Positions 11,068-64,000 of a stretch of 64,000 nucleotides of DNA are shown here, in pieces. How positions within the stretch are numbered: the stretch's first letter is position 1; each line of letters opens with the position of its first letter. Origin of the DNA: Candidatus Pacearchaeota archaeon (lineage in GTDB: Archaea > Nanobdellota > Nanobdellia > Pacearchaeales > UBA284); the NCBI GenBank assembly GCA_038886195.1, contig JAVZYK010000001.1, forward strand, positions 529,106-593,105, given 5' to 3'. Below the pieces are notes generated by a model that saw nothing but the letters and a program-made list of their open reading frames with translations, was not told where the DNA came from and searched no databases. Position numbers and translations under genes: made by a program.

Positions 11068-11871
11068 TTATTCTAAAATAAATTCTAATTTAATCGGCTC
11101 AAATTTTATGTTGTTATTTTCTATAAAGAAAAAAGCTCTTTTTGTTTTAAGATTAAAAAAGTAATAATTGTTTTGTTTTTCAACTTTAACATTCCAATTT
11201 TCAAAATTTAAATTTTTGAAACAATCTTCATTTTCATTGCATTTTGATTTTTCTTCCATGATTTTATCATATATTTTTAAAAAATCATTAAGATATATTC
11301 CTTGTTCTTCAAGTTTAGTATTTATTGTTTGTTCTTTCGAAAGAATTATATCATAGTTAACAAAAATTCCTTTCTTTTCTATTTCAATAGTTGCCGGTTC
11401 ATTTTTTGATATTATGATATTTTCTTGCTCATTGAAAATGTGAGTGTAATTTTGCCTTAATTTTTCATTAGGGTATGATTTTATTAGAAAATCAAAACTT
11501 TTGTTAAATTCCTCTAGGAATGCTTTTTTGATGTATTCTGTTTCTGGTTTACATTCTAGATTCCAAATTGGTAAATGCGTTTCTGGTTCTATTTTGCAAG
11601 CTGATTTTTTTTCTACAGCGCCATTTTTTGCTATAATATGGAATGCTTGCGACGCCGCAAGCTTTTTTGTTTCTTCTATATATAAAGAAAATCTGTCTTG
11701 CTCATTGTAAATGCTTGTTAAAATTGGAAGCAATTCAATTTCTGTGGCTACATTTTTATTTGTTGTAGAAAATGCAAACCAGGCAGTAACTATAAAAATT
11801 ATCGTTGCTAAAACCATTCCTGCCGCAAAAATTCCAGCTTTTCTATTTTTCATTTTATTCTTTAATTTCAA
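11068..11871 (-). CDS. Membrane-anchored extracellular protein; possible pilin-like N-terminus
   Basis: 'MKLKNKMKNRKAG|IFAAGMVLATIIFIVTAWFAF': basic segment, small residue, then a hydrophobic helix, resembling a class III signal. Confidence 0.35.
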   Translation of the reverse strand: MKLKNKMKNRKAGIFAAGMVLATIIFIVTAWFAFSTTNKNVATEIELLPILTSIYNEQDRFSLYIEETKKLAASQAFHIIAKNGAVEKKSACKIEPETHLPIWNLECKPETEYIKKAFLEEFNKSFDFLIKSYPNEKLRQNYTHIFNEQENIIISKNEPATIEIEKKGIFVNYDIILSKEQTINTKLEEQGIYLNDFLKIYDKIMEEKSKCNENEDCFKNLNFENWNVKVEKQNNYYFFNLKTKRAFFFIENNNIKFEPIKLEFILE

Positions 11872-12352
11872 GATTTGCTATTATAGTTTCATTTGAAGGA
11901 ATATAAAAAAAAGAACCTTTGTATTTTAAGTAAGGTACGAAAATTATTGAAGGGCCGGCCAATGTTGGTTTAAATGTTAGTTTAGTTAAATCTTCTAGTT
12001 TCAATATATCGAATTTATAGTCATAAATATTAAAAGCTGAACTTTCTTGTTCTAAAATGGCTTTATAAGTAGAATTTATTTTTGAAAGTATTATTAGTTC
12101 TGCGATGGTTAAATTTTGTTCTTCGTTATTAAATATTATTGTTACTGGTTTTTGAAGCCAGGATTGTAACGACAAGTGTTCTTGATTATGAATTGATTGT
12201 TCTTCTGAAGATTTTTTAATTTCAGTTACAGCTCCTCCCCAAAACACTTTTGATAATACGAAAAATATTATTAAAAGAACAATTATTATGGCGGCTCCTA
12301 CAACATCTTGGAGAGCTTCTCCTATTTGCCCTTTCTTATTCGTTCTTTTCAT
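11855..12352 (-). CDS. Type IV pilin-like protein (class III signal peptide)
   Basis: 'MKRTNKKG|QIGEALQDVVGAAIIIVLLIIFFVL' closely resembles archaeal prepilin/archaellin signals (KKGQIG...). Confidence 0.55.
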   Translation of the reverse strand: MKRTNKKGQIGEALQDVVGAAIIIVLLIIFFVLSKVFWGGAVTEIKKSSEEQSIHNQEHLSLQSWLQKPVTIIFNNEEQNLTIAELIILSKINSTYKAILEQESSAFNIYDYKFDILKLEDLTKLTFKPTLAGPSIIFVPYLKYKGSFFYIPSNETIIANLEIKE

Positions 12353-12354
12353 TT

Positions 12355-12825
12355 TTATAGATTCTTTTCAGTTTTTCTTATTGCTATAAATATTTTTGCT
12401 GTTGAAAGTTTTTGTTGGTTTAAAACCAAATATTTTGTTTCTGAGCAACTAGGATATGTTTTTATGTTAACTTTTTTTTCTTTTGCTTCACATAGGGTGG
12501 CTAAAAAACTTTTTCCAGTTTCTATAGAATTATCATCAAGAGTTAATTTGATATATAATTCATTTTCATTTATTGGAATGCAGTCAGTTAAATTCTTAAT
12601 TTCTATGTTATTATTGATAATGCCTTTAGGAGCTATACATTCTATAATTTTTCTAGAAATTGCTGCTGTTTCTAGAGGTCTAACATCTAATTGTCTAGAA
12701 TAATGAGATATCACAATAGCTACTACTCCGCCTATTACCAATACAAGAAGAATAAATTTCCAAAGCCAACTAATTCCATGGCCTAGCTGCGCTTTCTTTT
12801 CTTTAAATATAAATTTTATTTTCAT
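12355..12825 (-). CDS. Membrane-anchored protein, possibly pilin-like
   Basis: 'KEKKAQLGHGISWLWKFILLVLVIGGVVAIV': basic stretch followed by a hydrophobic helix. Confidence 0.35.
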   Translation of the reverse strand: MKIKFIFKEKKAQLGHGISWLWKFILLVLVIGGVVAIVISHYSRQLDVRPLETAAISRKIIECIAPKGIINNNIEIKNLTDCIPINENELYIKLTLDDNSIETGKSFLATLCEAKEKKVNIKTYPSCSETKYLVLNQQKLSTAKIFIAIRKTEKNL

Positions 12826-13172
12826 TTTATTTCAATTACAGTTATATTGCCTTTTGATGTAAATATGACATTATCTTGCAAATAACAAGGATAAATATAA
12901 CCAGGATCGAAAGAACCTTCTCTAATTATGATGTCTGTTCTTTTTTTTTCTATTGAAATTTTTTTATCGTGTTCTATTATAATGTTTGTTCCAGCTCTTC
13001 CTTGCGCTTCCGTTATTGCAATACACAAATCTTTAGCCAGAATCTGTTTTTTTAATGCCTTGCCAGAAGCTTGACTGTTTATCCAAAAAACTACCATTAT
13101 TAGAATCATTATAATGAAAAACAAGTTAAAGAAAAATTGCCACCCTAATTCAAAACCTCTTTTATTAAACAT
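12822..13172 (-). CDS. Type IV pilin-like protein (class III signal peptide)
   Basis: 'MFNKRG|FELGWQFFFNLFFIIMILIMVV'; 116 aa. Confidence 0.5.
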   Translation of the reverse strand: MFNKRGFELGWQFFFNLFFIIMILIMVVFWINSQASGKALKKQILAKDLCIAITEAQGRAGTNIIIEHDKKISIEKKRTDIIIREGSFDPGYIYPCYLQDNVIFTSKGNITVIEIK

Positions 13173-13273
13173 TTTAATAAATTATAATAATTTTTATAAA
13201 GAAAAAGGATTAATAAATTTAGTGATTATGATAATATGGACGAGAATCTATTGAATAATTTTTAAATTAAAAA

Positions 13274-14224
13274 ATGTTAGACTATCGTATTGAAGTTGAA
13301 AATACAAAAAGCACGATAAACGAAATAAATAAAGAAGACTTTGAATTAACGTTCAAAATTAGTTTACCAAAACAAAACTATTTATCAAATATAAAAAAAT
13401 TTTTTGAGACGAGAAAAGAAAATAACCCTTTTTTGAAAAAAAGTTGCTCAGAGGAAATTAAAAAATATGAGAAATGTGTTGAAGAAAAATATTTTGAAGA
13501 AGTAAAAGATGTATTGTTGCAAAGATTAATTTTATCAGATTTTTATATTGAATTGAAAGAAGAATTTGATGAAGAAAAGAATGAAAAAAACCTTCTTGTC
13601 AATATAAAGAGAGAAAATTTTGATAGCTTCTTTAAGTTAAGTTTTTTAATGCCAAGAATAGAGACTAAAAAATCTATTTTTGGTTCTAGTATAAAAAAAG
13701 TTTCTTTACCAGATTTAATTTATTATTATACTCTTTCAGGAACTGGAGATCCTACGGCTGTTGATAAAATAAAAGACGAATATGCGAGAGAAGTTCCGAT
13801 TGCAAAAGAATTTAAAAATTATTTTATTAATGGAGAATGGATTAAAATTAAGGATGTTCAATTAACTGAAGAAAATTTCAAAATAGAAGTTGTTGGAAAA
13901 ATAATGTTTGAAATTTATTATTCGGAACAACTCAAACAAAAATCGCCAAATTTGTCTGATTTAAATGCTTTATTATTTGAAGAAAAAAAGCAGAGCTTGC
14001 TAACAAAACTTGCTTTTGATAATAATTTGTCGCATAAAGTTGAAATAAGAAAAAATGAAATGGAAACGATCGTTAAAAGTAGAAATAAGGATTTTGAAGC
14101 AAAAATTATTTTAGCTCCTAATGCCGATTTTCTACCATTGTTTTTAAGTTTTTATTATTCTATCCATGGTAATGGTAAAAATTTTCATACTTTTTTAAAA
14201 GAGTATTGGCCATCGACAGAATAA
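13274..14224 (+). CDS. Hypothetical protein
   Basis: 316 aa, no TM segment, no recognised motif. Lies inside the pilin-like cluster. Confidence 0.4.
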   Translation: MLDYRIEVENTKSTINEINKEDFELTFKISLPKQNYLSNIKKFFETRKENNPFLKKSCSEEIKKYEKCVEEKYFEEVKDVLLQRLILSDFYIELKEEFDEEKNEKNLLVNIKRENFDSFFKLSFLMPRIETKKSIFGSSIKKVSLPDLIYYYTLSGTGDPTAVDKIKDEYAREVPIAKEFKNYFINGEWIKIKDVQLTEENFKIEVVGKIMFEIYYSEQLKQKSPNLSDLNALLFEEKKQSLLTKLAFDNNLSHKVEIRKNEMETIVKSRNKDFEAKIILAPNADFLPLFLSFYYSIHGNGKNFHTFLKEYWPSTE

Positions 14225-15027
14225 AAATGCCTCTAAAGAGAACATTTTATAAATACGGAAGTAATAAAATAAATAAAATACAATTAAAGCAAGAATCAAA
14301 AAATCACAAAATAAAAAATTTTTTATTAACTGCTTTTGCTTTTTGTACTATTGGAGTTGTTGCTTATTTGGCGTGGCCGAAAACTAAAGCTAGCGAAGGC
14401 GCTTTTGAAAAAAACAAAATTAATAAAGAAAAGCTTGAACAACAATATGTTTATAAAAAATCGAAAAGAGCTCCTCTAGAAATAAGAATAGATGAAATTA
14501 CATTTAATAATAGTTTACAAAGAAGATATTTAACGACTAGAACTTTAGAAGATGCGGTTATTAAACTAGAAATAGAAGCAACATTTCCTTCTGATGCATA
14601 TGTGTATAGCGATTTTAAAAGTATAAGTGAGCCAAGTTCGAGTGAAATTGAATATATGAGAAATTATTTTATTAATCGTTTTACGCAAAAATTTTCTGAG
14701 GAAGTTCCTTTTTTTATGATTGATTTTTATGTTAATGGCAATAAAGTTCATGAAGAAATAAAATTAAATTTTCCGAACATAGCGGAAAGATCGATATCTT
14801 CTTATCCTAAAGAAATTAAAATAAGAAATAAAAATTTTATTTTAACATGCAATGTAGGAGGAACAATAAATAGAAATATTTATGGAACTGTAGAAACAAA
14901 AATTAGAGAAAGACATTATAATGGCCTAGGAACTTATACTACTTTTTATTATTATGATGTTAAGGGCTACATATTTATAACAAAAAGTTGGCTTAAAGAC
15001 GTGTATATTAGAAAAGAACGTGATTAG
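14206..15027 (+). CDS. Hypothetical membrane-anchored protein
   Basis: Single TM 'FLLTAFAFCTIGVVAYLAW' after a basic N-terminus. Confidence 0.4.
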   Translation: MAIDRIKMPLKRTFYKYGSNKINKIQLKQESKNHKIKNFLLTAFAFCTIGVVAYLAWPKTKASEGAFEKNKINKEKLEQQYVYKKSKRAPLEIRIDEITFNNSLQRRYLTTRTLEDAVIKLEIEATFPSDAYVYSDFKSISEPSSSEIEYMRNYFINRFTQKFSEEVPFFMIDFYVNGNKVHEEIKLNFPNIAERSISSYPKEIKIRNKNFILTCNVGGTINRNIYGTVETKIRERHYNGLGTYTTFYYYDVKGYIFITKSWLKDVYIRKERD

Positions 15028-15039
15028 CAGCCAAATGCA

Positions 15040-15942
15040 TTAAGGAATGCTTTCTATGTTTTGACAATTGGCAACTACGTCTTGAGCAGTTAGTGGAGTT
15101 AAAATTATAGCATTACAACCTTTGCGTTCACCTTCACAATGTACTGCAGCAGCATGTCCTGAAGTTAAAAAAGTAATTACATGTCCTGCCGCTTCTGCGG
15201 TCGCCATAATCCATCCAATAACTGGAATTAATTTTACTGCTGATTTTACTCCTATTTTAGTTAAACCTTTAGCTAAAAGACGAGGAACAAAAAAAGCACT
15301 TGTTCCACCCAATCCTATATAATTTTTAATTTCTTCTCCTAAATCTTCTCCCTTTATAGACATAAAGATTATTGCATAATCTTGATTTGTATCTAATTTT
15401 TCTATTTTAATTTCTGTTGGAAGTTCTGCTTTTTCTTCTTGACTAAAATATTCTAAATAAGTTAAATTTTTTGATGGAATTTTTGTTCGTTCAAGAAAAC
15501 TTAACAAATCGATTTGTTTTCTTTTAGCCTTTTCATCAAATCTAATTATTGAGCATATAATACAATTTGCTTTTGCAGTTCCCTTTCCTGGAACCCCCCA
15601 CTCACGCCAACCGCTTTCCGAGAAAAACTGCATTTTGCCTTCACCCAGCATCCACCAGCAATCATACATAGCATTTGCTATTTCTCTTTTAATGAAATCT
15701 TCATTAGTGGAACTAATTGTTATTTCTTGAGTTTTACAGTTTAAAGGAATTGTTTCTGGAAGCATTCCTTCTCCTCTTAAAATTGCATTATTTCTTAAAA
15801 TTACAGAATTTCTACAAGCTTCTTTATCAACAGTTTCTTTATAAGGTAGTGCTTTTAGGAAAAAGAAAATTATTGCAGCAATTAGGAGAACTATGATTAT
15901 GCCTATTAACATTGATTGAACTGTTACGCCTCTTTTATTCAT
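15040..15942 (-). CDS. Pilin-like secreted protein, Cys-containing
   Basis: 'MNKRG|VTVQSMLIGIIIVLLIAAIIFFFL' class III-like signal. The 300-aa body has 8 Cys. Confidence 0.45.
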   Translation of the reverse strand: MNKRGVTVQSMLIGIIIVLLIAAIIFFFLKALPYKETVDKEACRNSVILRNNAILRGEGMLPETIPLNCKTQEITISSTNEDFIKREIANAMYDCWWMLGEGKMQFFSESGWREWGVPGKGTAKANCIICSIIRFDEKAKRKQIDLLSFLERTKIPSKNLTYLEYFSQEEKAELPTEIKIEKLDTNQDYAIIFMSIKGEDLGEEIKNYIGLGGTSAFFVPRLLAKGLTKIGVKSAVKLIPVIGWIMATAEAAGHVITFLTSGHAAAVHCEGERKGCNAIILTPLTAQDVVANCQNIESIP

Positions 15943-15999
15943 AAATTTTATAAATAAAAAAGGATTAATAAATTTAATGATAATTTAACTGAATAAAAA

Positions 16000-16668
16000 A
16001 TGGGGAAAATTGGTTGTTTTAGTTTATTGACTTTAATAGCTGGTGGCATTTTGGCTGCAAGTTATTGGATAGGAATTTTACAAGATTTAAAATATGAAAT
16101 TATTTTGCCTTCTAGAGGACGTTTAGCTAAGCGCAAAATAGAAAGCAAACTTAATGCAGACTGTTTCGAAAGATATTGGGAATATGGAAAAACTTATTGT
16201 GAAGGAGGCAAAGTCAGCGGAAACTATTATTTTATTTATTTTAAAAAAAATCCTGATTTTTTAGAACCTTTTTTTGGAAAATTTAATATCATTGATATCA
16301 AATTTCCTAAAGCCAATACTCTTGATGAGGCATTTATGTATGTTTCAGATATGTTGTCTAACAAGATTTTGGGTATTGAAAGAAGAATTTCAGAAGAGAA
16401 ATTATCCGTTTTAGAAAAAGAGATTAGAAACTCTGGAATTACTCCAGAAATCGAAACAGAATTGTTTAAAATTTTTAATCCATTTTTGGGAGAAGAAAAA
16501 ACAAGAAGAATTATTGATATCGCCACTGATGAAAATTTATCTGCAGAAGAAGCGACAAAGAGATTTATAGATGAAGTTCCAACTAATTTAAGTTCAGAAG
16601 AAGAAAAATTTGTCAAAGACGTTGTGAAAAAAATATTAGAACATCCTAAAGTAAAAGAAAATTATTAA
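16000..16668 (+). CDS. Hypothetical membrane-anchored protein
   Basis: N-terminal TM 'FSLLTLIAGGILAASYWIGIL'; 222 aa. Confidence 0.4.
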   Translation: MGKIGCFSLLTLIAGGILAASYWIGILQDLKYEIILPSRGRLAKRKIESKLNADCFERYWEYGKTYCEGGKVSGNYYFIYFKKNPDFLEPFFGKFNIIDIKFPKANTLDEAFMYVSDMLSNKILGIERRISEEKLSVLEKEIRNSGITPEIETELFKIFNPFLGEEKTRRIIDIATDENLSAEEATKRFIDEVPTNLSSEEEKFVKDVVKKILEHPKVKENY

Positions 16669-17003
16669 ATTCTATAACGATATTTTAGTTTGCTCTTCAT
16701 AATGGGATGCGAGACTAATGGAATTCCTGAGAAGTCAAAAGCGCTATTGGAATAGGCAATAGGCTATTTAAGCTATACTGAGGCTTTATGATAAAAAAAA
16801 GCAATCTTTATAAGCGGCATTGTTACAGGTGCTGAAGGAAGATTATTGAGTAATACAAATTTACAGATACTCTCGTTGTTAGAGAAGAAGATGGAAAATT
16901 ATATTATTCCAAAACGTTTAAGTAAAAATAAAATTGCAGATCCGATTAAAACGAAAAGTAAAATTATTATTATCAGTTTAACAAGAGTTTGAGTTTCCAT
17001 TTT

Positions 17004-18116
17004 CTATGAAATAGCGGCCTTCACTTTTTGAAGATAATCTAAACCTTTGAAAGATTTGCAATTTTCAACTTCTAAAGGAACACAATACTTTTCAACCATA
17101 GAGGGACCTGTATTGTAAGCCATCACTCCTAACTCCCAATCTTTAAATTTATCTATCATTGAAATCAAATGTCTTGTGCCGACATCAATATTCTTTGCTT
17201 CATCAAAACGTTCATCCAAAGCAATAAGTTCTTCTTTTGTTTTTGTATTTTTTAAATTTTTCAATTCTGTAACATAATCAGTTTTTAAATAGTTTAAAAT
17301 TTCGTCACTCCATCTTGCTTCTAGAGGGGTGTTTTTTATCTTATCATTTGGATCATAAATTTTTAATCCAAAATCTAAAGCGACTTGAGGCATTAATTGC
17401 ATCAATCCAACTTCACCAGTTGTGCCAATAGCATTCCAAGAACCTTGAGATTCAATTGTAATGATTGCTTTAATTAATTTTTCAAATTCTTGTTCATTGG
17501 CTATGTAGTTTTTATCTTTAATTTGAGGATAGTATTTTTTTACTATTTCGGTTATAATAGAGTTATAATTTTTTTCAATTATTTGATTAGTCTGTTTTAA
17601 TTGAAGTTGAATTTCTGCTTTTTCTTCTTCTGTTAAAGATATTGGAATGGTTGGTTTTATTTTGCTTACATTGTAGTATTCTTTCATATTGGTTAACCAT
17701 ATCTCGCTAATTTGAATTTGTATTATAGCAAGCTCATTATCTTTTTTTAAAGGCAATTTTATTGTTTGGCAAATTTTACATTCTTTTTTTTCACAAATGC
17801 AAAGAATGTTTTGCTGAAAATATTTAGAAGGTTTGATATAGTCTTTGTTTTTGTTGTGTTGAGTATCGAAAGCAACTATATGCCAACCTATTGGAGCATA
17901 AAGAAAATAATTTTTAGATTCAGCTTCTGTTAAGTTATTTAAAATTTGAGTTAGTCTATCTAAAGTGCCTTTTGCTTGCATTTCTTTTTGTTTGCCAAAA
18001 TAAGTTGCGAAAAGCCTTTGAGCAGCAAAAATTAAAATGATTATTATCATTATAGCAAGAATTATTTCTAAAATTTGTTTTAAACCCCATTCGTCACCTT
18101 TTTTGTTAATATTCAT
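17004..18116 (-). CDS. Lytic transglycosylase (SLT/GH23 domain) with pilin-like class III signal peptide
   Basis: N-terminus 'MNINKKG|DEWGLKQILEIILAIMIIIILIF'. The C-terminal domain 'IESQGSWNAIGTTGEVGLMQLMPQVA ... VMAYNTGPSMV' matches the SLT catalytic-region motifs (E-S ... GLMQ ... AYN.G). Confidence 0.7.
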   Translation of the reverse strand: MNINKKGDEWGLKQILEIILAIMIIIILIFAAQRLFATYFGKQKEMQAKGTLDRLTQILNNLTEAESKNYFLYAPIGWHIVAFDTQHNKNKDYIKPSKYFQQNILCICEKKECKICQTIKLPLKKDNELAIIQIQISEIWLTNMKEYYNVSKIKPTIPISLTEEEKAEIQLQLKQTNQIIEKNYNSIITEIVKKYYPQIKDKNYIANEQEFEKLIKAIITIESQGSWNAIGTTGEVGLMQLMPQVALDFGLKIYDPNDKIKNTPLEARWSDEILNYLKTDYVTELKNLKNTKTKEELIALDERFDEAKNIDVGTRHLISMIDKFKDWELGVMAYNTGPSMVEKYCVPLEVENCKSFKGLDYLQKVKAAIS

Positions 18117-18152
18117 AAATAGAGTAAAGAAATATAATATTTAAAATTTTGT

Positions 18153-18332
18153 TTAAGGTTTAATTTGGGTTTCATTCCATAAGCCAAATGTAATTTTTAT
18201 TCTAGTCATTAAATTTGCAATAACTTCTTTCATTGTTCCAGAAAAAATTAATAGAATTACAATTAGAGCCACTAAAGCTAAAATTATAATTATGATTGTA
18301 TTGATAGAGAGTTCTGCGGCCTTTTTGTTCAT
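18153..18332 (-). CDS. Small type IV pilin-like protein
   Basis: From the internal Met: 'MNKKA|AELSINTIIIIILALVALIVILLIF'. Paralogous to the N-terminus of the 18338..18721 product. The track ORF extends to 18371 but would then overlap the upstream gene. Confidence 0.45.
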   Translation of the reverse strand: MNKKAAELSINTIIIIILALVALIVILLIFSGTMKEVIANLMTRIKITFGLWNETQIKP

Positions 18333-18337
18333 CTTTT

Positions 18338-18721
18338 TTATTCTGAAGGAGGATAACCAAGCTCTTCGCACCTTTCTCTCGTAGCTATCGTTATTTCCTT
18401 ATTTGTGGCAGGGTCGATGTATTTTAGTTTCGCTTCTATTGGCTTTTCGAAACAGTAAAAGTAATCTGTAGTTTTGTTTACTGTATTGTAAAGAGGTTGT
18501 TTTACTTGACAAAAAGTTTCTATTGTTGCTTGGGAACAATAGTCTTTTACAATTCTAATTCTATCACCACCATAAACTTGATAAGCTGTTTTTATGCTTC
18601 CAAAAAGATTTTGTAAGCCTCCAGTAAACCACAATACTAAAACTACGAGCACTACTATGGCTAAAATTATTATAATCACTGTTGTAACATTTATTTCTAC
18701 GGCTTTTTTATTTATTTTCAT
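18338..18721 (-). CDS. Type IV pilin-like protein (class III signal peptide)
   Basis: 'MKINKKA|VEINVTTVIIIILAIVVLVVLVLWF'; 127 aa. Confidence 0.5.
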   Translation of the reverse strand: MKINKKAVEINVTTVIIIILAIVVLVVLVLWFTGGLQNLFGSIKTAYQVYGGDRIRIVKDYCSQATIETFCQVKQPLYNTVNKTTDYFYCFEKPIEAKLKYIDPATNKEITIATRERCEELGYPPSE

Positions 18722-18787
18722 TTTTCCTCTTTTATCTTTTTTATTTAATTTTATAAAGCAAGATTGTTTTTAAAACTTTCTAACTAT

Positions 18788-19357: not shown

Positions 19358-19566
19358 TTTAAGCTATCTTCCAAATCTTATAAAGTCTTTTATCCATTCA
19401 ATTAAATTAGAGCCCTGTTTTTTTAACAAAATTGCTAGAGCAAATAAAAAGGCAAGAACTATTATGGCAATTATCCAAGCAACAACTTCCCATTCAATGC
19501 CTCTTTTCATGCAAATATGTTTCATAAAACAACAATGTTTTTTAACTTTAAAAATTTAATTAGATC

Positions 19567-22907: not shown

Positions 22908-22947
22908 TCTCTGTGAATAAAAAATAGATAGTTGGTGTTACAGAAAA

Positions 22948-23430: not shown

Positions 23431-23499
23431 CAAAAAAAGCAAAATATAAAAAGGTACTTTATTTAATATTTAAGAATAAGATATAGAAAAGAGGAAAAA

Positions 23500-24039: not shown

Positions 24040-24086
24040 ATTTTTAATATAAAAAATAAAAAAACTAAGAGTCAATAAAAGTTAAA

Positions 24087-55954: not shown

Positions 55955-57232
55955 ATGCCTGATGTCAATCAACCTGTTGGGCCAACTTATAGTATTGGAG
56001 AGTCTTTAAGAGCCTCTTTACCAGCAGGACTCGCAGGAGCAATTATCGGAGCAATAATCGGAGTTTTATTGAGTTTATTTGCAATTTTTAACCTCGGTTT
56101 AAGTGGTTTAATTGGAACTATCATTCTAGCAACCTTTGGTTTGATTATCGGTTTTATAGTTGTCTATATTATAACTTTTGTTTGGTATATATTGCCTTCA
56201 TGGCTAAAGAAACCCGTAACTTATCTTCTTATAATTGTTTTTATTGGTTTAATAATTTGGATCGCAATATTTTTTTGGAGACTTCCTTTGACAGGAGAAT
56301 ATTTGAAATTTGCTTCTCCTGTTTTTGATGGCTTAGCTAAAGGATGGAGAGATTTAAGAACGTCTTGGGGTGCTTGTTTGTATTTGAAACCTCCATGTCC
56401 TTTTCTTGTAGATTGGGAAACGCCCAATGTTCAAAGTGCACAAGAAGAATTGAATATAGACGTTAGATTTTCAGAAGCTAAAATATCTAAGCAAAACGAA
56501 ATATATGTTTTAGTTTCTTTAACCGTTACGAATCCTGAATTGAGTGAATTAATCGTCAAGCCTCGATGTTTTTTGGGAAAGGATAAAGTTCGTGAACTGA
56601 ATGTAGAATCTATGGGTAGTTATGCTAAAGGTGATGAATTTGTTTTTGGAACAACTTCAAGAGGCCAAGAATTGCATACAAGTTTTAGATGTAGTGGCGA
56701 AATATATGAAGCAGGAGATAAGCCCTTATATTCTGACTATCTTGTTGTTGTTCTCGAAAGACCAGTTTCTGTAAAAACTACTTGGCCAGTCCAAATTAAA
56801 AGAGGAGAAGGACCAAATTTAGGATTAGTTAAAAGCACAATGCAATTTAATGCTCCTTATAGCATTGCTTTTGCAAGCGATAATGATATGCCTTTTTTAG
56901 AAGGTAGAGAATATAGTTTTAATATCGTCTTGAAGAGAAGACAAGAAAACGCTAAATTTAAGGAGCTTAATTACATTAGTGTGAAATTTCCTGATGATTT
57001 GATGATAGAATGTAAAGGTTTCGTTGGTTCAGATCATAAATTAGAATTAAGAGAGCACGATTATGAATCCTTAAAGAAAATTGCTCAATATAGCGAAAGC
57101 GAAGACAAATTTTCATGGCCTTGTAAACTTTATGTTTCAGAAGCGCCTCCTCAAGCAGTGTTGGCCCCTGTTAGTTTAGAATCTAAATATGTAGTTTATT
57201 CAGAAAGCAGTGTAAGAATAATTAAATCTTAG
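55955..57232 (+). CDS. Membrane protein with 4 N-terminal TM helices and a large extracellular domain
   Basis: Gly/Ile-rich TM helices in the first ~130 aa, followed by a ~290-aa beta-rich domain. Confidence 0.4.
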   Translation: MPDVNQPVGPTYSIGESLRASLPAGLAGAIIGAIIGVLLSLFAIFNLGLSGLIGTIILATFGLIIGFIVVYIITFVWYILPSWLKKPVTYLLIIVFIGLIIWIAIFFWRLPLTGEYLKFASPVFDGLAKGWRDLRTSWGACLYLKPPCPFLVDWETPNVQSAQEELNIDVRFSEAKISKQNEIYVLVSLTVTNPELSELIVKPRCFLGKDKVRELNVESMGSYAKGDEFVFGTTSRGQELHTSFRCSGEIYEAGDKPLYSDYLVVVLERPVSVKTTWPVQIKRGEGPNLGLVKSTMQFNAPYSIAFASDNDMPFLEGREYSFNIVLKRRQENAKFKELNYISVKFPDDLMIECKGFVGSDHKLELREHDYESLKKIAQYSESEDKFSWPCKLYVSEAPPQAVLAPVSLESKYVVYSESSVRIIKS

Positions 57233-57239
57233 TTAAAAA

Positions 57240-58181
57240 ATGAAAAAGTTCAATATAAAAATAACAAACGTTATTGTAGTTTTGTTAATTTTTATTGTTT
57301 TGATTTTTGTTTCCGGCCAAGAAGGATGCGAGATGCCTGGCAGTAGTGAGAAAACACAGGCAAAAAAAACTGGTGTTGATTTTAATTTGATAACTGGAGT
57401 AGATTATCTAAGTTCTGGCAAAATTATAGAGCAAGGAGAAAGCTTTTATGTTGGAATACATATCGAGAATTATGATAGTAAAGCGAAATCAGGAGAGGTT
57501 TGTATTTATGACGATATTTCTGATGAATATGGAGGCATAAATAGTCAAGGTGAATGTAAACCTTTTATAATTAATGCAGCAACTATAATAAAAAAAGAAA
57601 CAAGCGGAATGATGGGTAAAAAAATAGTAGAAGAAGTTACTCCTGGTAAAGTTGATGTTTATTTTCCTGAAGAAGGTATCTATAAGTATTATGGATTGCC
57701 TTCTCAAAAAGCGCCATGGCAAAGAACTCTTTTTGTTTCGGTTCGTTATAGAGAAAGCTCGCAAATTACAGGCTCTATAAAAGTTCCTAATCCAAGTTAT
57801 GAACAAATAGCTTTGATACAAGAGCCAACACCTCTTTCAATTTCAGTTACTAAATCAATTCATAAGCAACAAGATTCATATAAAGTTAATTTAGATATCC
57901 TTTTAAGCAAAAGAGCTCAATCAAAAATCTATTCTCCCGATTTTAAACAAGAAAACGTTACTGCATTCTATTTAAGACTAGAGCCACAACAGGTTCAATG
58001 TTTTTTGGCAGGAGGAGAGCCGATAAGAAATACAATTTTTATTGAAAACGAAAGACTTATAAAATGTTCTAGTCTCGTATATATGGCTGGCGAACTACAA
58101 CAGACTTTGCCGCTAATAATTGCCCTTGATTATGGAGTAGCTATAGAAAAAAGTTATGGTTTTGGTATAAAAACATTGTAA
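57240..58181 (+). CDS. Secreted/lipoprotein-like protein, paralog A
   Basis: Signal 'VIVVLLIFIVLIFVSGQEGCE', shared with the next gene. Confidence 0.4.
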   Translation: MKKFNIKITNVIVVLLIFIVLIFVSGQEGCEMPGSSEKTQAKKTGVDFNLITGVDYLSSGKIIEQGESFYVGIHIENYDSKAKSGEVCIYDDISDEYGGINSQGECKPFIINAATIIKKETSGMMGKKIVEEVTPGKVDVYFPEEGIYKYYGLPSQKAPWQRTLFVSVRYRESSQITGSIKVPNPSYEQIALIQEPTPLSISVTKSIHKQQDSYKVNLDILLSKRAQSKIYSPDFKQENVTAFYLRLEPQQVQCFLAGGEPIRNTIFIENERLIKCSSLVYMAGELQQTLPLIIALDYGVAIEKSYGFGIKTL

Positions 58182-58292
58182 AAAAAGAATAAAGAAAAAA
58201 GAGGAAAATAAAATGAGCTGCGGAGTTTGTGGAAAAAAGCAAAAAAAGAAGAAAAAGAAATAAGGAAATAAGAAATAAAGAGGAATAAAAAA

Positions 58293-59210
58293 ATGGAAAG
58301 AAAGGTTTTTGTTGCAGTTGTTTTGACTTTGATATTGGTTTTACTTTTTGTTTCTGGACAACAAGGATGCAAAAAAGAAGAAAAAACAACTTTTAATACA
58401 ACTGCTTTGATTGTTAAATTTATAGACGATGCCCCTCCAGTTCAGCTTGTTCCTGGAGAAAAGTACAGAATTTACGCAGAAGTAAAAAATTTAGGAGGAT
58501 ATGATGTAAATCCTGGAAATGCTCATTTTTTCTTAAGCGGCATAGGTGAAAATCTTAAGAATGTTAATTTACATTTGCAAAATAGCAATTTGTTAAACAA
58601 AAAAACAACGATGCAGGAAGGAGGTAAAGAACAAATAATATTTACTAATAATGCTGAAGTTAGTGAGAAGTTGAGTAGTTTGCCAGCTCCTTTTAATTTT
58701 AATATGAGGTTGGATTCTTGTTATAAATACGCAACAATAACTCAGACAGAAGTTTGTGTTGGTAGAGGAGATAATATTTGCAGTATAGCTGGAGAGAAAA
58801 TTGTTAGTGGAAGCAATAGCGCAGCCCCTTTACAAGTTACTAGTCTGAAGGAAAGCGTCCAAGGCAATAAACTATATGTTACATTTTTGATAGAAAATAA
58901 AGGGAATGGCGAAGTATATTTGCCAAATGCGGATTGTGTTAAAATACAAGAACAAAACATTGATGAGAAGTTGAAACAAAACAAAGTTGAATTAGCAATA
59001 GAAGCAGAAGAAGGTTTTAGTTGTAAGCTTCAGTCAACACAGCCTCCTTATGGAACTATAGATAGTTTAAATGGAATAGCTTCTATAGGAACTATAACTT
59101 GTCAAAAAACTTTGACAGAAACCACAGGGCATAAAATACCTTTTAGAATTGTTTTATCATATGTTTATAGAGAAAGTATAACTAAAGGATTAACGATATT
59201 GCCTCCTTAA
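58293..59210 (+). CDS. Secreted/lipoprotein-like protein, paralog B
   Basis: Signal 'VVLTLILVLLFVSGQQGCKKEEK'. Shared features with paralog A are the 'FVSGQ[EQ]GC' motif immediately after the signal-peptide helix, a beta-rich Cys-containing body, and similar length. Confidence 0.4.
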   Translation: MERKVFVAVVLTLILVLLFVSGQQGCKKEEKTTFNTTALIVKFIDDAPPVQLVPGEKYRIYAEVKNLGGYDVNPGNAHFFLSGIGENLKNVNLHLQNSNLLNKKTTMQEGGKEQIIFTNNAEVSEKLSSLPAPFNFNMRLDSCYKYATITQTEVCVGRGDNICSIAGEKIVSGSNSAAPLQVTSLKESVQGNKLYVTFLIENKGNGEVYLPNADCVKIQEQNIDEKLKQNKVELAIEAEEGFSCKLQSTQPPYGTIDSLNGIASIGTITCQKTLTETTGHKIPFRIVLSYVYRESITKGLTILPP

Positions 59211-59640: not shown

Positions 59641-59771
59641 ATATTGAAAAAATAAATATGGAGCCTATAAAAAGGTTGCGATTCCAATAACAATCTTAAA
59701 AAAATTAAAATTTATAAAAATTTATAAACTTTATAAACTATTAGATTTTATTAATTTAAGAAATTTAGAAA

Positions 59772-62700
59772 ATGGGAAAAGAGGTAAAAGAAAAAACAAT
59801 TATTTTTTTTATGATCCTTTTTATAATTTTAGCTATAATTTTAATTTTCATTGGTTTTATCAATTTAAAGCCCCATTTTACTGGCAAAGCAATTTCAGTT
59901 GAAAAAGAAAGCTTTGTTATTAGTGAACCAATTAAAGGAACTTTTAATTTAGAATTAAAAGAAGGTGAACTAATTCCTTCAAACACCGAAGTAATTGTAA
60001 CTTTAAAAAAAGATAATAAAAAAATAGTTAAAGAGCTTTCATTGAAAGAACTTGTTGAAATATCAGATTTAAAGGTCGCAGAACAACAAGGAAAATTTTT
60101 TATAGAAAATAAAAAAATTGAAGGTGAAGGTTTTGGTTATGGTTGGCCAGGTCATTATATCGTTTATCCTAATGTTTACTTTCAGTTAAAAGTTTCTAAG
60201 ATTGCTGAAGAAAGTAAAAGTCAAGAAATTGAAGAGCCTTTACCTGAATTGCCTGTTGAACAAGAAGTTGAGCAAGAATCTCAAGAAATAATGTCAGAAC
60301 AAATTGAAGAAGAGCAATCTACAGAACAAGAATCTCAAAAAGAAACATCTCAATCAGAAGAAACAGAGCAATCCATGGAACAAACAGAACAATCTGCAGG
60401 GCAAAATTTAGTTTCAATAACAGCATCTGCTGTTTTTAAAATGATAAAATTCTTTGGGATCTGGAACAGTTTTGCTGTTCTCGAAGAAAATGGAAAATAT
60501 AAAATTATAGAGGCAAGTTGCTCTAATGAAAATCCTTTCTTTTATGATTTAAAAGAAAATGAAAAAGTTGAACTTGTTTCAGGAACCGTTCACACTGAAG
60601 ATAAGAAATTAAAAGACGATGAAGTCAATATTGAAATTAAAAATAATAAAGTTGAAGTTTCAACCAATTATTTCGAAAGCTTTGAAGGATTTGGCGAGGC
60701 TTATTTAAACAAAGAAAAACACTATTTTAGTTTTAATCTTGAAAAATTAAATTTAAAAACAGATGAACCAGGAACTTATGATTTAATTATAACTTTAGTC
60801 TATCGAGGCCAAGAATTGTTGCGAGAAAGTGAAGAGATAGAAATTTTGCCTGGGGCTATTACGATAAAAGTTATTGACAAAGAAGGCAATGTTGAAGACG
60901 AGATTGCTGTTAATAATACAAAAATCAAGTTAAAAATTGGCAAGATAAAAGTTGGACGCGAAATTGAACACGAGCTTGAAATTGAAAAAGAAAATTTAGG
61001 AATAACGGGCAGTGCAATCATCGAGCAACCACTGCCAGAATCAGAAATCAACTTTATTTCGATGCCGGAAGATGTCGTGATTCAGATTGACAAGGTTCCT
61101 GAATATCAGACAGAGGTTTTTGCTATAGAGCCAAGTAAAGACATTGAGATTGAAAGCGCGATAATAACTTTAGAAAAAACAACTGCACAGCCAATAGCAA
61201 GAATCTTGCAGTGTGATGAATGGGACATTGAAGAATTTAAGTGTAATGGCGAATGGAAAGATTCTGGTTTGGAGTTTTTGGATAATGGAACTCACGTTTC
61301 TTTTACAACAAACCACTTCACTGCTTACATAGGCGAAAGCAACATGACTTGTCCTTATTATGTTAATGAAGATGTTGTGCTTGTGAGCAACGTTTCTTGC
61401 AATGGCACTGCCTTTATAATCAATGCCGATGATGTTACGATTGATTGTCAAGGTTATACTATAAATTATGGCATAACAAGTTCTGGCTATGGAATAAGCA
61501 ATAATGGCTTTGATAACATTGCAATTAGAAATTGTGTTATTAATGGAGGCGATTATGCTGATAGTTCAATTTATCAGACAGGCTCTGCAGATAATTTTAC
61601 AATCATGAATAACAATCTTTATTCTACTGCCATTCATACTTTAGATTTGCGAGAGCCACATAACAGCTTTATTTACAATAATACAATTTATGGCCGCATT
61701 TACATTGAGACTGGCTCGAATAATATTTTTGAAGGAAATATTATTGAGGGCAATGACTACCAATACTTTGGCGGAACTGATTATGATATAATTAACAATA
61801 AATTTTATTCAGAATCGATAGAACTTGATACTTATTCTGTTTATTTTGCATACAACTATATTGAAGACGCTGTTTCAGACAATACTGGTAGTGCAGTTTA
61901 TTTGGCAAATCACGAGGGAGGAAACTATGTCATTTTCAACAACACAATTTTAGTTTATGCAGATGGTGATAAAGGAATATACTTGGATAGAGTAGTAGAA
62001 TTGGCCGAAACCAATATAAGTTATAATAACATAACAGCCTATTGCGATGCTTGTAAAGGCATTGTTATTGACTATCCTAGTAACGTTCATATTGAAAACA
62101 ACGCCATTGAGACTTTTGGCAGCGCAATTGAATGGACAATGGACGGCTTGAAAAATAGTTATGGTCTTGTGCTTCGTTATGCTAGCTCAGATGGTTTTAG
62201 ATATATAACTAATAATGCAATCACAACTCATGGCGTTGGAGCTTCTGGGATTTATCTTTATGAAACACGTAACTGGAACGGCCCCGGCAGGAATGTTTTC
62301 CGCGATAATTTCATAGTAACAGAAAAAGGCTACGGCTTTGAGATTAGCGGAGATTGTGACGATCCTTATTCAAGTTATCCGAGCGATATTGATACAAGCA
62401 ACTTAGTTGAAGGCAAACCAGTTTATTATTATTGTAATGTAAGCAATACTGAGATAAGTGACTTGGATGCAGGGCAAATTATGGTAGGGCAAACAGCGAC
62501 TTGGCCTAATCCTTCAAATTTCACTTTGAAAAATGTTGCTTCTGAAGATGGAATAATGCTTATTGACGGCGTTGAAGGTGTCAACATTACAGAATCAACC
62601 ATTAACACAAACAATCAAGAAGGCGTTGCTGCAATTTACATAAAATATGCGGGTGGCTCTAACATCTACAATAATGAATTAACAGGAAATTATTATGGAG

Positions 62701-64000
62701 TTTATGATGAAAGTGGCAATAACTATGTGCATGACAATAATATTTCAAATAACGAGTATGGCGTAGTAGAAAGAGAAGCGTCTTGGTCACAAATTTATTC
62801 TAATGTCATGGATTCAAATAATATTGCTGTATTACTAAACTCAACTTATTCAGGTGGCGGTGGTGGCGGTGGCACAAGTTATCATAATATATCTTTCAAC
62901 AACATTTCAGGCGGCAATTACGGAATTTATTTGAGCGACGAAGACAACAACATTGTTGAGGGGAATACTATCGATAATGTTGACTATGCTTTATACATTT
63001 ATGGCACTCGTTCTGAACAAACCGGAAACAATCAGATTTTAAATAACAATATAACTAATAGTAATGTTTATGATTTCTATACTTTATATTTAAACAATCC
63101 CGGATTCGGAGACGATATCATTACTAACTTAAAAACAGACAATGTTGTTTCTAGTTTGCTTGTTAGAAATATTGCATTAAAAGCAACAACAAGCCCTGCG
63201 CCTGATCCATCGGGATGGCAGAATATCGGCAAGTTTTTAGAAATAAACAACAATACAGAGAATTCTTGGCTGTTGTTAAACATAAGCTATCTTGATTCTG
63301 AAATTGGCTCGATAAATGAATCAACCTTGCGCTTGTGGAAATATAATGGTTCGTGGCATCAGGTTGATAGTGATGTTGATATTGACAATAATGTTGTTTA
63401 TATGAACAACGCTGAGCCGCCTTCTAGTGTTTATGCTGTGATGGGCGAAGGCGGCGCAATTGATGATGAAGCGCCTCGATATAGTCAAGACAATGACAAT
63501 TCAACTGGAAGCGTTGTTCAAGGCAAAACAGTTAAGGTTTATGTTTATTGGCAAGACAATGTTGGCTTGAGCCATGCAATTTTCAGAACAAATGAATCAG
63601 GAACGTGGCAAAATGTTTCTATATGTAGTTTTTCAGGCGCAAACGGATGGTGTAATGCAACTATTGACACGACAGGAGATGCAGGCAAAACAATCTGCTG
63701 GAACCAATATGCTAATGACACAAGCAATAACTGGAACACAACAATGTCAGAAACATTACATTGCTTCAGAGTCACCACTTCTGGCGGAGGCGGAGGTGGT
63801 GGCGGAGGAGCTTATTGTGGCGACGGAATCTGTAACAATAATGAAAACTGCACTACTTGTCCAGAAGATTGTCATAGTTGCGGTGACGGCTGCTGTAGTC
63901 CTGAATATGGTGAGAGTTACAGCAATTGTTGGCAAGATTGCTGCTATCCAGAAGGTGTCAATAGGCCTGTTTTGCCATTACATGTTTGCTGTCCTGGTTT
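59772..64000 (+). CDS. Giant secreted/membrane-anchored protein with parallel beta-helix (PbH1-like) repeats, 5' portion only (more than 1409 aa; runs off the window end)
   Basis: ATG at 59772 is followed by the signal anchor 'IIFFMILFIILAIILIFIGF'. Reading by eye, the frame stays open to nt 64000. An acidic E/Q/S-rich linker precedes many repeats of the form 'N..I.NN.I....GI.L' (e.g. 'IAIRNCVINGG', 'FTIMNNNLYST', 'YVIFNNTILVYADGDKGIYL', 'NNITAYCDACKGIVIDY'). Poly-Gly linkers (GGGGGGG) and a terminal Cys-rich segment 'YCGDGICNNNENCTTCPEDCHSCGDGCCSPEYG' follow. Absent from the ORF track because it has no in-window stop. Confidence 0.6.
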   Translation, partial: MGKEVKEKTIIFFMILFIILAIILIFIGFINLKPHFTGKAISVEKESFVISEPIKGTFNLELKEGELIPSNTEVIVTLKKDNKKIVKELSLKELVEISDLKVAEQQGKFFIENKKIEGEGFGYGWPGHYIVYPNVYFQLKVSKIAEESKSQEIEEPLPELPVEQEVEQESQEIMSEQIEEEQSTEQESQKETSQSEETEQSMEQTEQSAGQNLVSITASAVFKMIKFFGIWNSFAVLEENGKYKIIEASCSNENPFFYDLKENEKVELVSGTVHTEDKKLKDDEVNIEIKNNKVEVSTNYFESFEGFGEAYLNKEKHYFSFNLEKLNLKTDEPGTYDLIITLVYRGQELLRESEEIEILPGAITIKVIDKEGNVEDEIAVNNTKIKLKIGKIKVGREIEHELEIEKENLGITGSAIIEQPLPESEINFISMPEDVVIQIDKVPEYQTEVFAIEPSKDIEIESAIITLEKTTAQPIARILQCDEWDIEEFKCNGEWKDSGLEFLDNGTHVSFTTNHFTAYIGESNMTCPYYVNEDVVLVSNVSCNGTAFIINADDVTIDCQGYTINYGITSSGYGISNNGFDNIAIRNCVINGGDYADSSIYQTGSADNFTIMNNNLYSTAIHTLDLREPHNSFIYNNTIYGRIYIETGSNNIFEGNIIEGNDYQYFGGTDYDIINNKFYSESIELDTYSVYFAYNYIEDAVSDNTGSAVYLANHEGGNYVIFNNTILVYADGDKGIYLDRVVELAETNISYNNITAYCDACKGIVIDYPSNVHIENNAIETFGSAIEWTMDGLKNSYGLVLRYASSDGFRYITNNAITTHGVGASGIYLYETRNWNGPGRNVFRDNFIVTEKGYGFEISGDCDDPYSSYPSDIDTSNLVEGKPVYYYCNVSNTEISDLDAGQIMVGQTATWPNPSNFTLKNVASEDGIMLIDGVEGVNITESTINTNNQEGVAAIYIKYAGGSNIYNNELTGNYYGVYDESGNNYVHDNNISNNEYGVVEREASWSQIYSNVMDSNNIAVLLNSTYSGGGGGGGTSYHNISFNNISGGNYGIYLSDEDNNIVEGNTIDNVDYALYIYGTRSEQTGNNQILNNNITNSNVYDFYTLYLNNPGFGDDIITNLKTDNVVSSLLVRNIALKATTSPAPDPSGWQNIGKFLEINNNTENSWLLLNISYLDSEIGSINESTLRLWKYNGSWHQVDSDVDIDNNVVYMNNAEPPSSVYAVMGEGGAIDDEAPRYSQDNDNSTGSVVQGKTVKVYVYWQDNVGLSHAIFRTNESGTWQNVSICSFSGANGWCNATIDTTGDAGKTICWNQYANDTSNNWNTTMSETLHCFRVTTSGGGGGGGGGAYCGDGICNNNENCTTCPEDCHSCGDGCCSPEYGESYSNCWQDCCYPEGVNRPVLPLHVCCPG

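Follow-up and report, generated by a model that had tools for sequence, protein, structure and literature searches.

What would murein hydrolases do at the surface of an archaeon, and how would they be displayed there? The question is raised by a 64-kb stretch of DNA from Candidatus Pacearchaeota archaeon (the window, by which we mean the whole stretch analyzed; ∼31% GC), in which a sequence-only reading had seen one coordinated contact and penetration system. Our analysis points to two surface modules that probably present murein-degrading enzymes to bacteria and act on the wall of a partner or prey cell at the contact site. Module A would be a type IV filament machine made up of about ten prepilin-type proteins together with an ATPase, a TadB/C-like platform and an A24 peptidase. 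Among the prepilin-type proteins is a predicted modular pilin, in which a 53-residue helix and a β-sheet head with four conserved cysteines are followed by a helical linker and an apparently intact GH23 domain. Module B appears to be a two-gene unit: a 622-amino-acid (aa) protein with a prepilin-type signal, followed by a giant, putatively Sec-exported protein with a recombining cassette, here of the M23 type. The features on which this proposal centers are the following.

17004-18116, minus strand: SLT-carrying modular pilin-like protein, 370 aa (PF01464, 7.8e-19)
35172-37040, plus strand: partner protein, 622 aa, prepilin-type N-terminus QKKA/QVSL..., directly upstream of the giant
37084-44448, plus strand: giant, 2454 aa, Sec-type signal; sole Pfam domain M23 (PF01551) at residues 1886-1987 (E 1.7e-27)
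42506-43233, plus strand: exchangeable M23 cassette of the giant, residues ∼1808-2050, with FHDGID at 1886, YHHL at 1942 and SHLDF at 1974

The 370-aa protein consists of a prepilin-type N-terminus and pilin-like head (residues 1 to ∼160), a helical linker and an SLT/GH23 domain (residues ∼208-369). An AlphaFold2 (AF2) model (predicted local distance difference test, pLDDT, 91) comprises a helix at residues 9-61, a β-sheet at 67-151 and a helical linker at 163-200, followed by the SLT domain. Homologues fall into 26 clusters of 337-381 aa plus one 209-aa fragment. Across them, the N-terminal carrier module is conserved in its leader (NK[KR]G), its transmembrane (TM) helix, the motif QAKGTL and four invariant cysteines (106, 108, 113 and 116). 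In the SLT domain, E222-S223 is invariant in the homologue alignment, GLMQ occurs at 237 and AYNTG at 333 (the AYNxG motif), and the catalytic motifs are invariant in all 21 SLT homologues. The domain's lysozyme-like fold matches MltE, MltD and Slt70, placing it in GH23 by fold as well as by sequence. The SLT-type muramidase with a pilin signal that had been read from the sequence was thus borne out by the PF01464 match and the prepilin-type N-terminus. Because the catalytic motifs are invariant in the 21 homologues and the GC content is genome-like (0.28-0.33 for the hydrolase genes), the data support a hydrolase that is predicted to be functional and native.

The position of this gene is conserved too. 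In relatives, it holds the same slot in the pilin cluster at 43-57% identity, and a hidden Markov model of the carrier module found its best non-self matches in the window at the N-termini of other pilins of the cluster. These comparisons support the SLT protein as a predicted integral and positionally conserved member of the cluster. The cargo is exchangeable. In homologues P0022-P0025, the carrier is kept at 54-64% identity and the SLT domain is replaced by a GH73 glucosaminidase; in loci L009 and L014, this slot within the same pilin cluster is taken by the GH73 version. (L007 and L011 are stretches of a near-identical strain, JAWAAA010000002.1; L001, L003-L006, L008-L010 and L014 are further loci used for comparison.) A search with the carrier alone (residues 1-165) against 1.84 billion representatives yielded 371 matches, 37 of them at ≤1e-10, and many were ∼150 aa long, that is, carrier only. 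Among the 69 matches of at least 250 aa, Pfam recognized SLT in 12, GH73 in eight, VanY/M15 in six, Amidase_2 and 3D in four each, and a phage lysozyme in one. The ten closest carrier proteins all have SLT, GH73 or 3D. Wherever the cargo is recognizable, it is a murein hydrolase, and at least five unrelated enzyme families are represented. In this respect, the protein resembles a modular pilin: its effector is fused C-terminally via a linker and has been exchanged in evolution.

The giant of module B has a scaffold that is conserved over residues 1 to ∼1800 and contains a Cys-rich core (1120-1700); a coiled-coil linker leads to the variable hydrolase cassette, and residues ∼2050-2454 form a C-terminal domain. 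The M23 match and the Sec-type signal bear out its earlier description as an M23-containing surface protein of 2454 aa. Its family comprises at least 76 homologous clusters of 1407-3041 aa, named, where names are given, as Pacearchaeota, Nanoarchaeota or 'archaeon'. According to the coverage profile, members share the first ∼1700-1800 residues, the Cys-rich core being best kept, and diverge afterwards. An AF2 model of the core (residues 1100-1810, 36 homologues) was poor (pLDDT 69, predicted template modelling score 0.36, and pLDDT below 50 in the Cys-rich region), and a Foldseek search with it gave nothing at E ≤ 0.001, only generic β-sandwich matches. In the variable region, precomputed Pfam annotation placed murein-hydrolase domains in 37 of the 76 clusters, as follows.

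M23 only: 17 clusters
SLT only: 6 clusters
Amidase_3 only: 4 clusters
M23 and SLT: 4 clusters
M23 and Amidase_3: 2 clusters
Amidase_3 and SLT: 1 cluster
M10 and SLT: 1 cluster
GH73: 1 cluster
VanY: 1 cluster

Exchange at this site is also seen between near-identical strains, a comparison that told us more than any other. The window giant and homologue P0027 are 100% identical over residues 1-1800 and nearly so over 2051-2454, with only 14-48% identity over 1801-2050. At the nucleotide level, blastn found no similarity between the 728 nt at 42506-43233 and the 692 nt that occupy this site in L007, and the flanks are 99.9% identical. Such a cassette exchange would be a signature of specificity switching.

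A conserved scaffold with a recombining C-terminal enzyme is the architecture of polymorphic toxins and effectors. Together with the cassette swaps, it agrees with a reading in which the giant and the enzyme-pilins are bacteriolytic weapons for interference competition, comparable to bacteriocin-like hydrolases or polymorphic toxins and unrelated to symbiosis or attachment. Haloarchaeal M23-type hydrolases have been shown experimentally to kill bacteria, and M23 homologues occur in Nanoarchaeia (PMC12352652). However, the polymorphic-toxin logic applies only in part. No immunity gene lies directly downstream of the giant, where a tRNA-Leu gene and an Sm protein gene are found (relatives have unrelated small open reading frames, ORFs, there), and none would be needed in a murein-less producer. 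That the enzyme is encoded within a pilin cluster speaks for delivery on contact and not by diffusion, and so reduced an organism is expected to depend on other cells; killing and feeding are inseparable by sequence. We consider a purely competitive role quite unlikely.

The other gene of module B offers a connection to the prepilin route. In every genome examined (L005, L006, L007 and L010), the gene immediately upstream of that for the giant encodes a partner of 617-622 aa. In L010, the giant is 34% identical to that of the window and carries SLT, and the partner and giant genes overlap by 4 nt (stop/start). The N-terminus of the partner reads K-[KR]-[AG]-Q, and K5 and Q8 do not vary among the four copies that were aligned (window, L005, L006 and L010). 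The 622-aa protein had no match in Pfam or NCBIfam (single-sequence searches) or in the PDB (small-profile search). Its predicted prepilin-type signal would be the one concrete link of the giant to the prepilin export route.

Because both carriers alternate GH23, GH73, 3D, M23, VanY/M15 and amidase cargo, and murein is the only substrate shared by these families, bacterial peptidoglycan is their predicted target. Outward action of the hydrolases on bacterial murein is, as a prediction, well supported, and the proposal that they are directed at a partner cell gains from the exchange of murein-specific families at both carriers. The case rests on this cargo exchange and on the swap in the near-identical strain, not on the original argument that two hydrolase folds occur in a murein-less organism.

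The same observations bear on a self-directed or non-murein role, in which the enzymes remodel the archaeon's own envelope (S-layer glycans or a pseudomurein-like polymer) or clear a path for its own filament. Dedicated SLT enzymes are encoded in bacterial loci for type III secretion, type IV secretion, flagella and pili; EtgA and FlgJ are among the structural matches, and GH23 also includes chitinases. By contrast, the cargo families found on the same carriers have bacterial peptidoglycan alone as a common substrate, and a change of class between strains would be surprising in an enzyme dedicated to assembly. Archaea of this group are not known to make murein, which also counts against such a role, and by established enzymology pseudomurein, with its β-1,3 links and L-amino acids, is not a known substrate of these hydrolase families. 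A self-directed role is very improbable.

The machinery that would display the modular pilin is encoded mostly around it.

4049-6340, minus strand: secretion/assembly ATPase, 763 aa (Pfam T2SSE 5e-12; NCBIfam FlaI 1.9e-37, TadA 5.4e-32, BasE 3.3e-18)
11068-13172, minus strand: four consecutive pilin-like genes, 267/165/156/116 aa, with N-termini RKA/G, KKG/Q, KKA/Q and KRG/F
15040-15942, minus strand: pilin-like protein, 300 aa, MNKRG/VTVQ..., with a recombining C-terminal domain
18153-18332, minus strand: 59-aa protein, class-III-type N-terminus MNKKA/AELS..., called as a gene in L011, L003 and L004
18338-18721, minus strand: pilin-like protein, 127 aa, KKA/VEIN..., weak Flp1_like match at the N-terminus, conserved in relatives
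18788-19525, minus strand: 189-aa N-terminally anchored protein and 53-aa ORF, positions kept in L001, L003, L009 and L011
19364-19525, minus strand: the 53-aa class-III-type ORF, MKRG/IEWE...
20335-22500, minus strand: polytopic membrane protein, 721 aa, at least eight hydrophobic segments, adjoining the pilin genes
22623-24569, plus strand: PRC-barrel protein (Pfam PRC 5.9e-6) and three small 5-TM proteins, placed here by synteny
54874-55758, minus strand: A24 prepilin (class III signal) peptidase, 294 aa (Pfam Peptidase_A24 3.5e-14, Arc_PepC_II 1.6e-3)

The ATPase, which lies before the part of the window covered by the sequence-only reading, is of the VirB11/PilB family found in archaeal type IV filament systems, and its gene adjoins the pilin cluster in relatives too. 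The prepilin peptidase keeps its position in L005, L006 and L008. Ten ORFs have prepilin-type N-termini (a leader that is short and basic, then [KR][GA] and ∼20 residues of hydrophobic helix), nine of them within 11068-19525 and the tenth being the partner gene at 35172-37040. They were found by a scan for motif and hydrophobicity, followed by inspection of small ORFs; none is matched by Pfam pilin models, and they qualify as class III pilins at the level of the motif. The order of the four-gene run is kept in L001, L003, L009 and L011, and its products have no Pfam match. The 59-aa protein is a candidate small major pilin.

The 721-aa protein has 3817 homologues, the best 120 of which are 58-100% identical to it, and is among the most conserved genes of the lineage. 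Five homologues are named 'Flp pilus assembly protein TadB' by the Joint Genome Institute. It is probably a TadB/TadC-type platform, a divergent candidate that escapes current models. At least two of the three small 5-TM proteins are paralogues (E 1e-6); in relatives, their genes and that of the PRC-barrel protein always lie between the platform gene and SRP54, and the products may be accessory parts of the filament machine. Overall, the ATPase, the A24 peptidase and the pilin-type ORFs confirm the pilus gene set noted earlier, with the adjoining polytopic protein as its candidate platform.

The score of the ATPase against BasE, of the bindosome, brings in another ecology, that of scavenging. 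Digestive enzymes displayed on or released from the surface would feed an auxotroph from wall debris or dead bacteria, the prepilin signal would serve only as a bindosome-like anchor, and there would be no host-specific attachment or breaching. PibD-type peptidases do process non-pilins such as sugar-binding proteins (PMC4858521), Pacearchaeota have been called scavengers for which a supply of peptidoglycan-derived amino acids was proposed (PMC11537232), and a wide range of enzyme classes would be useful for digesting peptidoglycan completely. However, each genome has one cassette per carrier and not a full digestive set, the window showed no genes for muropeptide transport or catabolism, and the allele swap in 99.9%-identical strains resembles specificity switching under conflict or host tracking. 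We regard scavenging as unlikely. It differs from the wall-targeting model, as does interference competition, in ecology and not in molecular anatomy.

Whether the two modules work together is a separate question, since it had been argued from co-localization. Between the pilin cluster and the giant lie genes for SRP54, an ABC transporter, FtsY, a phosphatase, GINS, two ribosomal proteins and a glycosyltransferase, as well as tRNA genes; hydrolase and pilus genes are interspersed with housekeeping genes and form no single island. The whole gene order, housekeeping genes included, is kept in relatives at 45-59% protein identity. Because housekeeping genes intervene and the entire order is syntenic anyway, co-localization is weak evidence, and proximity may reflect frozen synteny as much as function.

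In the extreme case, the pilus cluster, the M23 giant and a second, β-helix giant at the end of the window would be functionally unrelated and together only by frozen gene order. The conserved order of the entire window fits this, as do the 15 kb of unrelated genes that separate the modules, the L010 giant with no pilus cluster nearby and the lack of anything linking the β-helix giant to the rest. By contrast, the modular pilin and the M23 giant draw on the same murein-hydrolase repertoire, the obligatory partner of the giant bears a prepilin-type signal that would need the same A24 peptidase, and the SLT gene lies inside the pilin cluster itself. We find a chance neighborhood somewhat unlikely. 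Of the coordinated system proposed earlier, the parts that stand are those based on the SLT gene within the pilin cluster and on the signal of the partner; the argument from co-localization is weak, given the frozen synteny and L010.

In the wall-targeting model that we favor, the A24 peptidase would process the modular pilin, which would be exported via the pilus machinery and become part of the filament, at its tip or close to it. The giant itself would be either free or, by analogy with the tethering of PilY1 by minor pilins, held through its prepilin-type partner. The archaeon being presumably murein-less, the enzymes would strike the cell wall of bacteria, as partners or prey, at the site of contact, both activity and target being predicted, and cassette types would correspond to the peptidoglycan chemotypes of the hosts. 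Penetration would be one possible outcome, alongside attachment, thinning of the wall at that spot or scavenging. A more specific version is that a type IV pilus with interchangeable 'enzyme-pilins' at its tip (SLT, GH73, 3D, VanY or amidase) and a PilY1-like giant docks on specific bacteria and locally opens their peptidoglycan, the cassettes setting the host range. We put this version forward tentatively, as possible rather than probable.

Several observations weigh against the model. Fold searches with the 370-aa protein returned no pilin among the top matches, the SLT domain dominating; because of this, the pilin identity of the carrier rests on motif, topology and gene context. About half of the long carrier proteins have no hydrolase domain recognizable by Pfam, and the same is true of half of the giant family, in which 38 of 76 clusters have no recognizable Pfam domain and one has ankyrin repeats. 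The platform candidate of 721 aa matched nothing in Pfam or NCBIfam (single sequence) or in the PDB (small profile), and so shows no T2SSF signature. The giant itself bears a Sec-type signal and not a prepilin-type one, and in L010 no pilus cluster occurs in the 10-kb flanks around giant and partner. The absence of murein synthesis from the genome was assessed over the window and the fetched flanks. Enzymatic activity, surface localization and expression of the hydrolases are predictions from sequence. Lastly, the M23 domain of the window lacks the canonical HxH motif, having S-H-L-D-F at 1974 where zoocin A has H-L-H.

This last point concerns the activity of the M23 allele. The domain is homologous to zoocin A (6.3e-17), with matches to lysostaphin and LytM as well, and retains the HxxxD zinc ligands and the upstream catalytic histidine (FHDGID at 1886, YHHL at 1942). 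The third zinc ligand is replaced by aspartate; H-L-D recurs in approximately nine relatives, some of which have also lost the first histidine. The allele of the 99.9%-identical strain is canonical (HTGID ... HLHF). The window allele may ligate metal differently and still be active, or it may be a LytM-type domain that serves for binding or regulation. In giant homologues P0031 and P0043 (also P0032 and P0033), a fully degenerate M23/LytM-like domain is accompanied by Amidase_3. In bacteria, catalytically dead LytM factors (EnvC and NlpD) activate Amidase_3 enzymes, a situation that the pairing in P0031 and P0043 resembles. The possibility that both hydrolase domains are inactive or degenerate, which the sequence-only reading had named as fatal to its proposal, is countered for SLT by its invariant motifs and applies in part to M23, as H-L-D leaves activity unassured.

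The DNA itself is archaeal. The window is 99.6-99.9% identical to JAWAAA010000002.1 (GCA_038885395.1, 'Candidatus Pacearchaeota archaeon') and encodes FtsZ, Spt5, RadA, RPA, SRP54, FtsY, GINS, TFB and RNase Z, together with a tRNA splicing endonuclease, eIF2-alpha, an Sm protein and e-type ribosomal proteins; some of these names derive from Pfam labels on orthologues in relatives. The identity and the housekeeping genes bear out the attribution to a DPANN-like organism at the level of lineage. A bacterial origin (candidate phyla radiation) was rejected on the archaeal housekeeping genes, and origin from a prophage or contamination on conserved chromosomal synteny and native GC. Recent inert transfer of the hydrolases was rejected as well, as catalytic motifs are kept across dozens of clusters; their native GC also argues against it.

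Four tRNA genes were found, one with an intron-like insert. This gene (32228-32315, plus strand, 88 nt) scores 63.9 bits with Rfam and is assigned no anticodon by ARAGORN, which fits an intron-containing archaeal tRNA; the splicing endonuclease gene (49163-49762) lies in the same window. RadA of the window (8965-9936) is intein-free, whereas that of L009 (15208-17673; 821 aa) carries an intein with a LAGLIDADG homing endonuclease.

Comparison of the two near-identical strains revealed structural differences at three places across ∼42 kb of alignable sequence, and two of the three, the M23 cassette and a second block, fall in the proposed surface apparatus.

13225-15623, strand not assigned: strain-variable block, unmatched by blastn in L011, which is otherwise 99.6-99.7% identical

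The block measures 2.4 kb in the window and is represented in L011 by 1.6 kb of unrelated sequence (16877-18505). It covers two opposite-strand genes, 13274-14224 and 14206-15027, and the part of the pilin-like gene that encodes the C-terminal two thirds of its 300-aa product. The opposite-strand genes encode 316 and 273 aa in the window; the L011 counterpart encodes 243 aa, and there is no mutual similarity. The alleles of the pilin-like protein (300 aa in the window, 341 aa in L011) are 55% identical overall, and their first 106 residues differ by one substitution. The window allele is nearer to that of the distant relative L001 (78%) than to that of the near-clone (55%). The third difference is a 2.76-kb insertion in the near-identical strain (L007 19699-22461; window ∼46734-46742), absent from the window, with five small genes including a D12-class DNA methyltransferase. 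It is possibly a restriction-modification or mobile cassette.

The remaining surface proteins considered are as follows.

45382-46725, plus strand: 447-aa protein with a PKPTPKPTPKP linker and a β-rich C-terminal half ending ...VKFYFK
55955-59210, plus strand: three surface proteins, 425/313/305 aa, the first with N-terminal TM helices; weak CARDB match
59769-64000, plus strand: β-helix giant, N-terminally anchored, at least 1410 aa, running past the window end (NosD 3.6e-14, Beta_helix 1.9e-11)

The sequence-only reading had counted 35172-37040, 55955-57232 and 45382-46725 as membrane-anchored extracellular proteins. This agrees with the prepilin-type N-terminus of the first and the N-terminal TM helices of the second. 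It fails for the 447-aa protein, which has no TM segment, signal, Pfam match or PDB match and was dropped from the system; its gene is present in the near-identical strain and absent from relatives at 50-60% identity. The adjacent 313- and 305-aa proteins (57240-59210, plus strand) share a lipobox-like N-terminus, FVSGQ(E/Q)GC, one of them having the weak CARDB match, and may be archaeal lipoproteins. Nothing ties the proteins of 55955-59210 to the hydrolases.

The second giant of more than 1400 aa, with a β-helix, proved to be as described, at its minimum length of 1410 aa and with its NosD and Beta_helix matches. It has runs of seven to nine glycines and, where the window ends, a Cys-rich tail (CGDGICNNNENCTTCPEDC...). 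A segment-wise Pfam scan of both giants (E ≤ 1) found nothing credible besides M23 and the β-helix, and placed the coiled coil of the M23 giant just before its cassette. Exact-protein look-ups of neighboring genes led no further than a 16.9-kb contig, which likewise breaks off within the β-helix giant, and a pattern scan of species-representative genomes gave no relatives. The look-up with the neighboring S10 protein returned a short Logan contig only, and not the JAWAAA contig, which was expected to extend past this point. The β-helix region may differ between the strains. Nothing ties this giant to the hydrolases.

If the wall-targeting model is correct, it extends the modular-pilin principle from bacteria to archaea, with an enzymatic payload. 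Its more specific version would also supply the first proposed molecular determinants of episymbiosis or predation of an archaeon on bacteria, and a new functional class of type IV filament, a wall-breaching pilus. All cultivated DPANN archaea known to us live on other archaea. Bacterial hosts for the abundant Pacearchaeota and Woesearchaeota have so far been argued solely from the presence of a murein-hydrolase domain. The locus makes this conjecture testable through a carrier family with murein-hydrolase cargo, a cassette-swapping giant and a partner whose prepilin-type signal would tie the giant to pilus export; cassette type and co-occurring bacteria could predict hosts.

Parts of this picture have precedents. 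Castelle et al. (2021) described fam00969, large extracellular proteins of Pacearchaeota and Woesearchaeota with murein-hydrolase domains (PMC8204110), Vigneron et al. (2022) proposed 'vampiristic' Woesearchaeota from GH23 and a pore-forming toxin (PMC9723730), and later surveys repeat the targeting of bacterial walls. These proteins and the window giant are alike in lineage, size (up to ∼3000 aa), extracellular location, murein-hydrolase domains and the bacterial-wall hypothesis. The published descriptions mention a lytic transglycosylase domain only, whereas the window giant has M23; they also include neither the alternation of M23, Amidase_3, SLT, GH73 and VanY, nor swaps between near-identical strains, nor a partner with a prepilin-type signal. 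Because the giant family (1407-3041 aa) includes 12 SLT (PF01464) members of up to 3041 aa, it is very probably fam00969, as matched by published description only. In our literature search, no paper joined Pacearchaeota, pilin and peptidoglycan. A search on archaea, class III signal peptides and lytic transglycosylases found only a preprint on Omnitrophota giant genes, and neither transglycosylases nor peptidoglycan come up in a survey of archaeal type IV filament systems from 2026.

Among delivery systems, the closest in architecture are PilB and PilC of S. sanguinis and the PilY1/PilC tip adhesins (Raynaud et al. 2021, PMC8179133). Bacterial modular pilins combine a pilin carrier, a linker and an effector, much as the 370-aa protein does with its pilin-like carrier, and they share effector modules with a large non-pilin tip protein, as the 370-aa protein does with the giant. 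The system described here differs in being archaeal, in having no detectable bacterial pilin signature and in having murein hydrolases in place of adhesion or lectin modules; the giant is without the PilY1 β-propeller, and incorporation into a filament is predicted. Type IV pili of episymbiotic Saccharibacteria (PMC9894109; PMC11623550) offer an ecological parallel, as an ultrasmall host-dependent cell engages the wall of a bacterial host through minor pilins with C-terminal glycan-binding domains. Saccharibacteria are, however, bacteria with their own peptidoglycan, their modules are lectin-like and the proof is experimental, whereas the modules in the window are predicted to be catalytic.

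The giants of predatory Omnitrophota (West-Roberts et al. 2023, 10.1101/2023.11.21.568195) carry wall-degrading domains, including SLT, beside a type II/IV-like locus with small class-III-signal genes, and were read as serving predation. There the roles are reversed, a bacterium preying on archaea; the proteins are ten times larger, no modular hydrolase-pilin is described and no homology has been shown. In the Sulfolobus bindosome (BasEF; PMC4858521), proteins with prepilin signals that form no filament are processed by PibD and mounted on the cell surface by a pair consisting of a type IV-like ATPase and a membrane protein, and the ATPase of the window scores against BasE. The bindosome cargo consists of solute-binding proteins for uptake and not of hydrolases, and lineage and locus organization differ. 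Strock et al. (2025, PMC12352652) reported bacteria-derived M23 hydrolases in murein-less archaea, with M23 homologues in four Nanoarchaeia genomes; the haloarchaeal enzymes are small and secreted and have PG_binding_1 domains, with no giant scaffold, pilin fusion or pilus context. Hydrolases associated with virions or secretion systems (phage tail and tape-measure lysins, type III secretion EtgA, type VI secretion Tse3) likewise place a wall-cutting domain on a delivery structure, which serves to breach the wall locally. Our sequence and structure matches include 9m7n Gp16, T7 gp16, EtgA and Tse3, the similarity being confined to the catalytic domains; unlike phage-type systems, the window has housekeeping genes, not phage genes, as neighbors.

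Together, these comparisons qualify the claim that the combination is not a described system. The general concept of bacterial-wall targeting and the giant family are already known, the giant murein-hydrolase proteins and the bacterial-host hypothesis having both been published (PMC8204110, PMC9723730). The hydrolase-carrying pilin family, the multi-class polymorphism of the giant's cassette, its swap at the level of strains and the partner with a prepilin-type signal appear to be new.

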